Assembly: GCA_044892505.1 (NCBI GenBank)
Contig: CM097883.1
Span: 259,222,001-259,286,000 of the forward strand
Direction: 5' to 3'
Source: Schmidtea nova
Taxonomy: Eukaryota
DNA: 64,000 nucleotides
Positions 29,107 through 33,546 of the stretch are shown one piece after another. Numbering within the stretch: position 1 is the stretch's first letter; each line of letters starts with the position of its first letter. The notes beneath the pieces are model-generated. The model ran no database searches, was not told the origin of the DNA, and worked only from the letters and a program-made list of their open reading frames with translations. The position numbers were made by a program, and so were the translations under genes.

Positions 29107-32100
29107 TTATATTGACAAAAAACTCTCCGAAAAATAAATCAATTTAATAAAATGCACCACAAATAGCCAAAGTTTGCTCAGGCAAACTTTGGCTGAAACA
29201 TTTCCCCCCACCTTGATCCCTTCTAGCGGATCAACCGACCTATTCATCTCTGGGGGGCCAACCTTCAACTTCCTAACTTTATTCTTCCACTTCGGCTTAT
29301 TTATAAGTTCAGTCGCTTCTTCCTTTTTACATTTAATACTAGAATTTCCGATAACATCTTCATAATTTCCTAGATCTGTTTCAACATCGTTAATTTTTCC
29401 ATTTTCCCTTTTATCAACATTGGAATTTTCAATTATTCCCTGCCTAATGTTTTCACCATTAAAAGAGTTCTCTCCAATAATTTCCTCAAAATTACAATTT
29501 TCTTCAATATCGCTAATATTTCCCACAACTTTCTCATCGACCATGCAGTTTTCTTTAATATCGTTAATATTTTCTACAATTTTCTCATCGACAATGCAGT
29601 TTTCTTTAATATCGTTAATATTTTCTACAATTTTCTCATCGACAATGCAGTTTTCTTCAAAATTATATTCACCTACTGCTTGCCCATTTTTCACTGATAT
29701 TGTAGATTCAATTTCCGTCATTACTCCTTGCACTAAATCGTTTGAAGAAGTATTTATTCCATCCTCGCCTACAATATCAACCGACTCAGAGTTATCAACC
29801 ATTTCACCAGACACACCGCTATTCACTGCGCTATTCTTACCTCGACCTGAATTCAATTCACCATCACCAGTTCGAACCTCACCAAGAACTACTTCCTGAG
29901 TTTTAGGTGCAAAACTCTCGATACATTCCTCTTCACACTGTTCTCTGTGACAAGTCTCCATTAACAAACTTTTATTCTCGGCTGTCCTTTTACTGTCATC
30001 CATTTTACCAAATATGTTATCATTTATTATGTTATCTTCATTTTGACAAAACCTCATGTGTTCTGTATGTGTTTCTTCAACTTCCTGGTATCGCTGGAGC
30101 TGTTGTTGGAACACTTCATTTGTTGTAAAATATGATTGGATGAAGTGTGTCTGTCCACAGCTCGGAATGCCTGATCGTTCTTTCCCGATGCAAGTCCATC
30201 CCAATGGAGTTAACCTAGCTATCGGTTCTCCTTCACGTCCCCATATCTCTTTAATTGCTTTTTGTAGACCTGCATAGTCAGCCCCAATAAGCGCATCTAC
30301 CGATAATCTACTTCCAGCCGTTGCAAATCTGATTCGTCTCAAATGGTCCCAGTTCAGACTTGCTTTTTTCCAATCGGTCACTCGCAAATCACTTGTTACC
30401 TTCGCTACCGACCAAGCATGAAATTCTTTGACCATGGTACTATCTAAACTCATTAAGTTCATTGTGACTCTCTGCGCCTCCAAATTTTCCCTTTTGCCTC
30501 CTATTACTCTAACTGGAACATTAACTTTTGATCCTGATAATTGCAATTCTCTAGACACATACATACTAACATAACTAACCGTACTTGCATCATCTAGTAA
30601 TGCGTTGACCGTTATTCTTTTTCCCCTCGATTCTAAAATGATAGGTATCGTCCTGAGGCTTATGTAACCCATATCATTTGACTTTCTATTTGTAACCATT
30701 CTAGTAACATGTGTTTGGGGTTTTTGATTGCTGTCCTCTCCTGATTCCTTTTCTCTTCGACTATGCAACAAACTATGATGTTTTCCCCCACAGTCTTTTT
30801 CCTTAAAAAATCCTGGTCTGGTGCATTCTCTCACTCCATGTCCTTTCCTTAAGCAGTTATAACATAACCTCCACTCTTGAACTAACTTTTTTCTGTCATT
30901 TACTGGCAATTGTTTGAATTGTGAGCATTGATCTAGATAATGTGCACCCGGACATTGGAAACACATCGACCTGCTTTGACCTTGTTGCATGATTACTCCT
31001 TCCCCACCTTTACTCGAGTTTTGTTTTACTTCATTGCCCGAGTTCGTAAAGTGTGAGTACCTTCTATTGTCATTCTTTTCGGAAGCCTTGAAGTTCTTCT
31101 GCCCGTACTGCCAATTAGAGTCTTTTTCACGCCCAAATCCATATAATATCTCATTTGTCGATCGCGTAAGATCAGCTTCGCCTTGCAACCACTCTTTTAA
31201 CCGGGTTATTGATTCTTCCCCTTCATCTTTCGCTTGCTCTCTTTTCCATCGAATAAGTAGCGAAGCTGGCAATTTCTTTAACAATTGTTGCAAGAGACAG
31301 CCTCTCTGTAAGTCCTCTTCCCTTCCGATTGCTTTAAACCGTACCTCCATTGACTCCAACAATCCAACGAAAACATCCAAGTCTTTCATCTCTCCTTCGC
31401 GAACCGGCCGGAATTTCTCTACGGTCTCTAACATGGTCAGATAACTACGTTCTTCACCTCCGTACCGCCTTTCTAATTTCTCTTTCGCCATCTTGTAGCC
31501 ATCGGCGGTATAACCCAGTGGCTCTATCATTCTCAGTGGCTCTCCTAGCAAGTACTGCCTAAGATGCAGCATTTTATCTTCGGCTGTTCCATCTGCCGTA
31601 TCTATTACCGTATTGAAGGCCGCTTTCCACGTCTCAAACTCGACAACTTTCCCATCGAAAATCGGAATCTTTATTTTCTGCAACCGATTTAAACTCTTCT
31701 TTTCTCTTGGCGCCTCATATTCCGATGTCTTTGACCCCTCGCTCACAACACTTTGTTCTGTTCTTTTTTGCATTATCTTATCTATCTCTTCTTTTTTTGT
31801 TTCGAGCTCACAGATATCTTTTTCCACTAATTCTAATTCCTCCTTCTTACTTAATTTGTCACACAACTCGACAAGTCTTAGCCACTCGTCCAATGTATCC
31901 TCAAATTCTTTCTCATATAATACCAGTGTGTCCTTTATTTCCCCGACCATTTCTGCCAACAATAAGTTACGCGCTCGAGTTACTTTCCATTTTTTAGATC
32001 GCCGACGGGTCCATAAACCTTTAAACTCTTCCTCATCATTACCGCCTCTTAAACGAAGAACAAGATGAAGAGTAGATTCCTTTTGTATGTTGTAATCTGC

Positions 32101-33546
32101 CAAGATTCTTCCGCCTTCCAATTGTTTACCCGCAAATATCAATCTCTGTTGATCAGGTGGGATTCCCTCTTTGTCTTGAATTTTCGTTTTTACCTTTTCT
32201 ATTGTGTCACTTGATTCAACTTCCAGGGTAATAGTTTTCCCTGTTAGCGTTTTTACAAATATTTGCATTCCCCCTCCCAATCTCAAAACTAGACCGAGAG
32301 CTGATTCCTTGGTGGGAATAGTCGCATTTCGATTAATTAACTTAGTGAAAGCGCCGCCCCGAGTTTCAATACCCAACGAAAGCGGTGTAACATCTAGCAA
32401 TAATACATCAATCACATACTCAGCAAGAACTCCTCCCTGTATTGCTGCTCCCAATGCAACAGCTTCATCTCGATTCACACTCTTACTAAGAACTCTACCG
32501 AAAAGTTTCTGTACAGTTTCTTGAACATTAGGCATTCTTGTCATCTCACCAACTAACAACACTTCTTTAATGCCCGATATTTTTACCTCTACATCTTTAA
32601 TACCTTTTTCACAAGGTTCAATTGTTCTCTTAATTAGGTGCTCCACCAATTGCTCTAACTTTGACCGTGTGAACCTTAAACTCAACTGTTTAGGTCCTGT
32701 ATTATCCATTGTCAAATATGGAAGATTAATGTGCGTTTGAATAGCTGATGACAATTCAATTGTAGCATTTTCAGCTGCTTCTCTAACTCTCTGTAAAGCC
32801 AGAGGGTCTTTATTAACATCAACGCCTTGATCACGTTTAAATTCATTACCGATACATTGTAAAAGCACATTATCAAAATCTTCCCCACCCAAAAACGTAT
32901 ACCCACTTGTAGATTTTACTTCAAAACTATTATTCAGATTTTTTATATAATTATCTCGCTTTAGCTTAATGATTTCCCAGTTGAAACACTCATAGTTGAT
33001 TTTAAATCCATAATTTTTAACCTCTCGCCCTATCTCTCTAATCATCGCTGTATTATACATCATTTCTTTTGGAAGACACCCCTTATTCACACAAGCCACA
33101 CCCGTTTTATTTTTTCCAATTAAAGGAACAGATCTCCTAAATCCATCTGTTCCCCTGGCTATTTCGTCCCCCAATTGAAAAGAATGCTGGGGCCCATAGC
33201 AGCATCTTTTCCGGTCCCTTAATGGACCCAACCCACCGCAAAACATGGTAAAGGGCAGAGGGGGAAATGTTTTAACCCAAATTACTTTCCAATTTTTACT
33301 ACATTCCCAAAAAATTTCAACTAAAACATAAAAATTACTACATTTATATATACAAAAAACTTCCAATAAAAAATCAAAAATATTGCATTGAAATACCTTG
33401 TTCTGGCTGGATAGCCAGAACCATATTCTGAAGGATCCAGAAAGCACGTGGTCCCCCGATGGGAACCACGCTCTGCTACCAGAAATGTTTGTGATAAAAC
33501 GTAACGCCCTTTCAATGATTTTATTGGCATATGTTTTGAACATCAC
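29107..33546 (-). CDS. Chimeric polyprotein ORF: leader - mtHSP70 fragment - ubiquitin - BEL/Pao Gag - protease - acidic tail
   Basis: 1479-aa open frame, in frame with the upstream calmodulin ORF (34227-33546 = 681 nt). Confidence 0.8.
29201..29214 (-). promoter_or_regulatory. Polypurine tract
   Basis: AAGGTGGGGGGAAA immediately before the TG of the 3' LTR; encodes the GGNV-type end typical of BEL/Pao ORFs. Confidence 0.8.
29503..29655 (-). repeat. Three 51-bp in-frame repeats ([17 protein letters not shown]) in the acidic tail
   Basis: Read directly from the sequence. Confidence 0.85.
30184..30663 (-). CDS. BEL/Pao aspartic protease region (DUF1758-like)
   Basis: [44 protein letters not shown]. 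Confidence 0.8.
30763..32040 (-). CDS. BEL/Pao Gag (DUF1759-like region + zinc knuckles)
   Basis: [71 protein letters not shown]. Confidence 0.88.
32041..32268 (-). CDS. Complete ubiquitin monomer (76 aa) fused in frame to Gag, preceded by the tail of another ubiquitin unit (32269-32310)
   Basis: [11 protein letters not shown]...[10 protein letters not shown]; six differences from human ubiquitin (P19S, N25K, A28T, D52G, T55I, S57A); upstream [14 protein letters not shown]. Confidence 0.95.
32302..32925 (-). pseudogene. HSPA9: Captured mitochondrial HSP70 (mortalin/HSPA9-like) internal fragment, 208 codons, intronless
   Basis: [63 protein letters not shown]; conserved sites altered (VGEMTR, NRDE, SGYT). 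Confidence 0.88.
33464..33481 (-). promoter_or_regulatory. Primer-binding site complementary to initiator tRNA-Met
   Basis: TGGTAGCAGAGCGTGGTT, 4 nt after the LTR-terminal CA; complements the ..CTCTGCTACCA 3' end of eukaryotic tRNAi-Met. Confidence 0.85.

Follow-up and report, generated by a model that had tools for sequence, protein, structure and literature searches.

A ubiquitin domain fused ahead of Gag in a clade of BEL/Pao retrotransposons of Schmidtea nova: a candidate site for release of Gag by host deubiquitinases

Introduction

In retrotransposons with long terminal repeats (LTRs), Gag is assumed to begin at a methionine of its own and to be matured by the protease that the element encodes. 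Whether Gag can acquire its N-terminus in another way is a question raised by a locus of Schmidtea nova (assembly GCA_044892505.1, contig CM097883.1, positions 259,222,001 to 259,286,000 of the forward strand). This whole stretch of 64,000 nucleotides is referred to as the window, and positions given below are those of the window. On its minus strand, a BEL/Pao element includes a single open frame of 1501 codons (29107–33612) that runs from a leader through a piece of mitochondrial HSP70, a ubiquitin tail and a complete ubiquitin into Gag-protease. A sequence-only reading of the locus had proposed that ubiquitin replaces the start of Gag, that host deubiquitinases free Gag from the captured host sequence ahead of it, and that the exposed asparagine may make Gag short-lived.

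Analysis of further copies, families and outside homologues revealed that the fusion is wider than first noted. It is clade-wide, is present in Pol-bearing families, and belongs to a frame whose start lies within pieces of host mRNA in the LTR. It is likely that translation starts at an ATG in the LTR, that a host deubiquitinase cuts after the diglycine of ubiquitin, and that Gag(-Pol) is thereby freed with a constant N-terminus.

Results

The complete ubiquitin of the window element (32041–32268; Pfam PF00240 at amino acids 451–522 of the frame, E 2.7e-28) shares 71 of 76 residues with a host polyubiquitin unit and ends in LRLRGG. As the sequence-only reading had it, this end is fused directly to the acidic NDEEEF start of Gag with no Met at the junction: Asn follows at 32040, and the earliest later Met (Met555, 31950) lies 30 codons downstream. 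A search of the genome with the junction pattern, in which the R-G-G codons were left free, gave 401 exact matches, and the reversed control gave none. Among the first 100 matches listed, R-G-G was kept in 99, with three synonymous codons for Gly75, and the remaining one has R-S-G. When the search was anchored in Gag only, 532 matches were found, and GG was kept in all of the first 30 listed, though these are mostly the same copies as those in the junction-anchored set. The residue after GG in these 30 copies is N (24), G (5) or V (1). A subfamily with a near-identical Gag that starts with Gly gave 60 matches, GG being present in 58 of them.

The diglycine sits 17–26 residues ahead of a conserved Gag lysine in the aligned Gag sequences of the elements. 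In relatives that lack ubiquitin, the annotated start Met is found 23–41 residues ahead of the same lysine in seven of eight cases, and 84 residues ahead in the eighth. Thus, by alignment, ubiquitin occupies the position of the start Met of Gag, which bears out the proposed replacement. Met1 of ubiquitin is Ile in families B, C and D and in the outside proteins P0240 and P0125; hence translation cannot start at ubiquitin there. A structure model (pLDDT 80.8, pTM 0.33) included a separate ubiquitin fold and long Gag helices, with a lower-confidence stretch at residues 71–80, and such a model cannot decide on cleavage.

Selection was assessed in 52 of 60 position-ordered copies, eight having been dropped as diverged or partial; the copies are related by descent, and the counts of variants and frames given here are therefore not counts of independent events. 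Pairwise pN/pS reached 0.85 in the leader and 0.91 in HSP70, compared with 0.15 in ubiquitin and 0.17 in both the N-terminal part of Gag (Gag-N) and the capsid. For variants present in at least two copies, the ratios were 1.13, 0.92, 0.24 (0.11–0.54), 0.21 and 0.17, respectively. Ubiquitin differed from HSP70 in these shared variants (12 non-synonymous and 14 synonymous versus 89 and 28, p=0.004) and did not differ from Gag (p=0.83). Ubiquitin, its diglycine included, is under purifying selection, and the domain is as constrained as Gag. The HSP70 cargo is free to drift in amino acid sequence, yet it is kept open. By its own account, the sequence-only reading would have failed had RGG decayed among copies as fast as the rest of the cargo; instead, RGG is preserved while the cargo decays.

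Among the non-synonymous variants of leader and cargo, stops account for 1 of 214 shared variants versus 12 of 276 singletons (p=0.009), a depletion indicating that selection keeps the leader translatable. The distance from the primer-binding site (PBS) to the junction is in frame in 41 of the 52 copies in which a PBS was found, with 18 different in-frame lengths, and 31 of the 60 copies are open from an ATG in the LTR into Gag.

Ahead of the complete ubiquitin lies a 13-residue remnant of a ubiquitin tail (32269–32307) that ends in LRLGGG and is probably a trace of polyubiquitin capture, judging from its sequence. None of 30 Gag-anchored copies has an intact RGG in this tail and only 3 of 60 junction-anchored copies do; the tail has a high pN/pS, a value resting on 13 codons. 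The sequence-only reading had set the lost Arg of this tail against the preserved site next to Gag. The sequence itself is as described; the weight given to the lost Arg was not upheld, because the tail lacks a ubiquitin body, and hence a fold that a deubiquitinase could bind, and because some relatives keep it intact. The idea that loss of the upstream RGG had been selected to prevent a second cut was dropped on the same ground, the tail being intact in family D and in relatives with two ubiquitins.

The window ubiquitin is only 76–82% identical in DNA sequence to ten host polyubiquitin units from three loci. Since its protein is identical to the host unit in 71 of 76 positions, the domain appears to be old and maintained and not a fresh passenger. 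A fresh capture was considered and rejected, as no close source was found in the three host polyubiquitin loci; single-unit ubiquitin genes were outside this comparison. The host polyubiquitin genes themselves encode Ser or Ala at residue 19, a position at which most animal ubiquitins have Pro.

Twenty Pol-bearing elements were fetched, having been chosen among the best-scoring, long-frame hits from 675 Pao RNase H candidates, of which 150 were listed. They represent four further families (A to D). A ubiquitin or ubiquitin-like domain lies directly ahead of Gag in all 20, and the junctions of the four families read LRLKGG-NEEEV, MGLKGG-SNENE, LRLCGG-NDEEE and LGLRGG-MDTQD. The Pol-bearing members encode reverse transcriptase (RT), Pao RNase H (PF05380), integrase and DUF5641 in one gag-pol frame, as detected with Pfam, and in 18 of the 20 the long frame includes SRAWFP, the read-through of the PBS. 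In Gag-protease the four families are 36–42% identical to the window element, and across the clade identity has fallen to 36–46%.

Pol was absent from all 20 position-ordered copies of the window family examined for it. However, a Pol-bearing member of this same family exists, with Pol motifs and a protein 84% identical to that of the window. The Pol-less copies are deletion derivatives, and the window copy would depend on the Pol-bearing members of its family. An earlier view, in which no member of the window family was autonomous and all relied on family C, was revised after the Pol-bearing member had been found.

Outside this genome, the top three of 117 Gag-protease homologues carry a ubiquitin domain or its tail, and the other 114 are without it. 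A profile search of 50% clusters gave seven more ubiquitin-bearing representatives, six with L-x-G-G and one (P0243) with L-K-E-G. A protein search with a combined ubiquitin and Gag query was dominated by polyubiquitins and was uninformative. Of the 42 rows in a Gag-protease tree, the 11 that bear ubiquitin group as a single clade (SH-aLRT 92). Of 16 lineages, 15 retain L-x-G-G, and in none does Pro come next.

Eight ubiquitins from these elements are 33–93% identical to host ubiquitin. L73, G75 and G76 are invariant among them, and so are Q2, F4, K11, I13, K27, L50 and T66. L8 is kept in seven and I44 in six, K48 and R72 in five, and R42, R74 and K63 in three. Across the clade, L-x-G-G outlasts the rest of ubiquitin. 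Relatives with two tandem ubiquitins ahead of Gag were also observed; the second is diverged (54 of 76 residues identical to host) and is followed by Gly, and five copies of this kind are found about 33 kb apart on C1.

The window element is a young BEL/Pao LTR retrotransposon, the LTR pair that flanks the frame being 99.83% identical over 1185 nt. All of its features are on the minus strand. The 5' LTR (33486–34687), the outer edge of which runs into N, includes a TATA-like box, the start of calmodulin with sequence upstream of it, and tandem repeats. The box (TATAAAA, 34539–34545) is a candidate LTR promoter, its function being predicted from sequence. Codons 1–25 of calmodulin, captured with an ATG that shares the frame of ubiquitin-Gag, are at 34153–34227, and the 3' LTR copy (28647–28721) matches calmodulin residues 1–25 with E 6e-13. 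In the window copy, the frame that starts at calmodulin is broken by an in-frame stop in the 5' LTR (33613–33615). This stop is one of only two differences between the two LTRs and was thus likely acquired after insertion. A second long frame started by calmodulin (L240) was also considered and is not an element polyprotein.

The PBS (33461–33481), which we take to be of the initiator-Met tRNA type, is read through in frame as GSRAWFP. The captured fragment of mitochondrial HSP70 (mortalin) follows at 32308–32928; it spans amino acids 229–439 of the frame according to Pfam, and its best PDB match is mitochondrial stress-70 (E 1.8e-86). Beyond ubiquitin, Gag (31231–32040) includes the acidic start, predicted long N-terminal helices, and the capsid region identified by Pfam as DUF1759 (BEL Gag; amino acids 652–794, 31659–31231). 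Gag Cys/His zinc knuckles are at 30760–30963, two of them clear and a third degenerate in the window copy, and the aspartic protease motif ALLDDAS is at 30583–30603. No RT, RNase H or integrase was found downstream of the protease in the window copy, either in the Pfam scan or in the sequence. In their place, positions 29300–30100 are occupied by an acidic low-complexity tail with 51-nt repeats. A polypurine tract (PPT; 29201–29212) precedes the 3' LTR (27225–29200), which starts with TG, has an outer edge that runs into N, and includes the end of the long frame at 29107.

Captured host sequence is not confined to the window subfamily. The LTRs of Pol-bearing elements hold pieces of VPS35, a ThiF/E1-like gene, prenyltransferase or TCP-1. 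Overall, the in-frame host pieces comprise calmodulin, VPS35, ThiF/E1-like, prenyltransferase and TCP-1 in LTRs or leaders, and HSP90 or mitochondrial HSP70 ahead of ubiquitin. Three captured pieces begin at or near the start of a domain or protein, and two are internal.

Further traits of the LTRs were observed. Tandem repeats of 114/132 nt (27225–28630 and 33503–34136) have lengths that are multiples of three and are open in the frame of Gag, and their copy number is unequal between the two window LTRs. Family C and the window family have in common an LTR repeat unit, 98% identical over 124 nt, and the LTR end, whereas their Gag-protease is only 46% identical; the shared stretches of the window are 28500–28640 and 33440–33540. 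This pattern points to exchange of LTR pieces between the two families. At 60 loci, of which 18 gave no LTR start, a (TAA/TAT)n microsatellite run precedes 34 of the 42 starts found, which suggests a target-site preference of the window family for such microsatellites, in a BEL element.

Other features of the window include remains of a Penelope-like element with RT (PF00078) and GIY-YIG frames (6651–8405, minus strand), a DDE_3 transposase frame (48805–49626, minus strand), an RT fragment (44007–44594, minus strand), a tyrosine-kinase exon (40942–41475, plus strand) and a terminal-inverted-repeat pair of 164 nt (20000–20163 and 21606–21769).

Discussion

The data point to the following course of Gag expression as the likely one. 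Translation would start at ATGs of captured host mRNA pieces in the LTR, calmodulin being the piece used in the window subfamily, in the one frame that runs from inside the 5' LTR through the PBS, the host-derived cargo and ubiquitin into Gag. Each Gag would then be made behind 400–700 residues of variable leader. Host deubiquitinases would cut after the final Gly-Gly of ubiquitin and release Gag(-Pol) with a fixed N-terminus. Ubiquitin would thus act as a tear-off line by which the leader is shed, as in the release of pestivirus NS3 or the processing of ubiquitin- and FUBI-ribosomal precursors. With a cut of this kind, host gene fragments would continue to be captured and exchanged in the clade at no cost to the capsid.

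Precedents for such a cut are given in the papers cited here and below. Ubiquitin fusions are cut ahead of any residue except Pro, and fusions that are not cut may be degraded via the UFD route (PMC9703124). FUBI, which is only 36% identical to ubiquitin, is still cut at GG by USP36 (PMC8354635). Pestivirus NS3 obtains its authentic N-terminus when host hydrolases cut captured ubiquitin (PMC8310069, PMC13517609).

The cytopathogenic pestiviruses (BVDV Osloss, CP1 and CP Rit) resemble the elements in having captured cellular ubiquitin directly ahead of a viral protein, often with other host mRNA upstream (PMC8310069, PMC13517609). However, the insertions described for these RNA viruses are sporadic and recurrent, whereas here the fusion is old and has become fixed in a clade of retrotransposons; its ubiquitin has diverged to as little as 33% identity and stands at the head of a capsid polyprotein. 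The Ub-eL40, Ub-eS31 and FUBI-eS30 precursors likewise have a ubiquitin or ubiquitin-like domain that is cut off at GG (PMC8354635), but that domain is their true N-terminus, and the ubiquitin of the elements is internal behind a variable leader. The 2A ribosome-skipping peptides of APE-type non-LTR retrotransposons are likewise a borrowed means of dividing a retrotransposon polyprotein close to its N-terminus (PMC3708506). They belong to a different element class, act in the ribosome and always leave Pro, whereas ubiquitin depends on a protease of the host and permits many different residues after the cut. In LTR-mediated retroposition (Tan et al. 2016; PMC5131818), host mRNA pieces are joined into LTR elements, often in frame and sometimes from several genes. 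The retrocopy described there is internal cargo of a broken element, while the host pieces described here form part of the LTR and leader, in frame with Gag, in elements that are multiplying.

The window element shares with BEL/Pao (Belpaoviridae, Semotivirus) the LTRs, PBS, PPT, single gag-pol frame, DUF1759, Cys/His knuckles and protease. The Pol order PR-RT-RH-IN with Pao-type domains is likewise shared at the family level, being present in relatives and absent from the window copy. It differs in having ubiquitin ahead of Gag and a frame that opens inside the LTR and continues across the PBS. BEL/Pao LTRs are 0.2–1.2 kb in length, compared with up to about 2 kb here, and the PBS is for tRNA-Arg or tRNA-Gly (PMC8742986). 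In this last trait of the ICTV description, which is descriptive and not defining, the window element departs from the family. Ubiquitin is not mentioned in the main text of a survey of BEL/Pao (PMC3118150), and the accessible portion of a review of giant transposons (PMC6431247) includes only ubiquitination-related domains, in Gypsy-like Burro elements. The literature searched gave no natural ubiquitin-Gag fusion in BEL/Pao or any other LTR retrotransposon; Repbase, GyDB, subscription journals and supplements lay outside this search, and a database note may exist.

Several points weigh against release of Gag by host deubiquitinases. USP-type enzymes use R72 and R74 of ubiquitin, and the diverged domains have lost one or both; hence their cutting may be slow or need another enzyme. 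The outside representative P0243 has L-K-E-G in place of L-x-G-G. As many as 29 of the 60 copies, and the window copy itself, are not open from an LTR start. In the window family, conservation extends beyond fold and tail to the entire surface of ubiquitin (71 of 76 residues are kept, and silent sites have largely diverged), and this would allow for a role in signalling. The flanks of RGG in the junction-anchored sample were fixed by construction. The clade support of 92 is from a quick tree search without bootstrap, and the relatives in the tree are unnamed. The 20 Pol-bearing elements were a biased pick from the best-scoring, long-frame hits, and BEL families without ubiquitin may therefore exist in the genome.

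The possibility that ubiquitin acts while attached or after release, and that cutting is incidental, would fit the purifying selection on the entire domain in the window family and the retention of L8 and I44 in most element domains (seven and six of eight). Ubiquitin might then be an aid to the folding or expression of Gag, a mimic of a late domain that recruits ESCRT, or a supply of conjugatable ubiquitin. Budding is indeed driven by engineered Gag-ubiquitin fusions (PMC2958808), but as described there these are C-terminal and lack GG, whereas GG is the best-kept part here. Moreover, K48, K63, R42 and R72 are lost in several lineages, the internal ubiquitin would leave its long leader on Gag, and no env was seen in Pfam scans of the window and the Pol-bearing elements. 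A role of this kind is thus rather unlikely. Asn and Gln are tertiary destabilising N-terminal residues, and the fusion might serve as a timer that exposes such a residue and limits the activity of the element through a short-lived Gag. Asn is indeed found at the junction in 24 of 30 Gag-anchored copies of the window family and in families A and C, Gln is found in P0240, and the freed residue sets the half-life of ubiquitin fusions (PMC9703124). However, this residue is Gly in the 60-match subfamily with a near-identical Gag; family B has Ser there, as do five outside proteins, and family D has Met, as do two outside proteins. The acidic NDEEEF also resembles the ordinary Gag starts of relatives (MADEEEKF), and a capsid protein would gain little from instability. 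Because the freed residue may be N, G, S, M or Q, and varies even within one family, the short life that had been suggested for Gag fails as a general purpose of the fusion; we regard it as improbable, an N-degron being at most a side effect in some lineages.

The two remaining explanations are far less probable. That ubiquitin is passenger cargo, a recent capture of an abundant mRNA like HSP70, with Gag started at a downstream Met or at the Met of ubiquitin, would fit the fact that the element does capture abundant host mRNAs, and both Met1 of ubiquitin (in most window-family copies) and Met555, 30 codons past GG, are available. This is contradicted by the pN/pS of ubiquitin (0.15 against 0.91 for HSP70, a true cargo), by silent sites far from those of the host polyubiquitin units examined (76–82% nucleotide identity), and by the same position of ubiquitin in five families and ten outside proteins. 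Met555, further, lies inside the conserved first helix and is Ile in a subfamily. The passenger explanation is largely refuted by the conservation of RGG, the pN/pS values, the comparison of element ubiquitins and the clade tree. Retroelement proteases favour hydrophobic residues at the cut site, and a cut by the aspartic protease of the element itself at or near the junction, with the ubiquitin fold as only a spacer, is hardly to be expected at a Gly-Gly that precedes N, G, S, M or Q. The protease motif is encoded in every family and the basic residues of the ubiquitin tail do vary, but L-x-G-G on a ubiquitin fold is the signature recognised by deubiquitinases and ULPs, and this explanation is very doubtful.

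Release of Gag by host deubiquitinases may be part of a broader strategy, which we offer tentatively and consider possible rather than probable. The clade would be a start-codon pirate that has given up its own Gag start and is translated from swappable 5' pieces of host housekeeping mRNAs in the LTR (calmodulin, prenyltransferase, an E1-like enzyme and others). These would bring borrowed translation signals and possibly a host-like disguise against silencing by small RNAs, while ubiquitin would serve as a universal adaptor through which host deubiquitinases regenerate one and the same Gag, no matter what precedes it. The element would thus be a standing shuffler of host gene fragments.

The clade appears to have handed the first cut of Gag to the ubiquitin system of the host, and to have kept this arrangement while Gag-protease fell to 36–46% identity. 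If so, it is a natural and heritable version of the laboratory ubiquitin-fusion technique, and it would account for the tolerance of an active element to hundreds of captured host residues in frame with its capsid. The activity of these transposons would then be tied to that of deubiquitinases, and the element ubiquitins, at 33–93% identity, would provide a natural series of variants for testing what deubiquitinases require.

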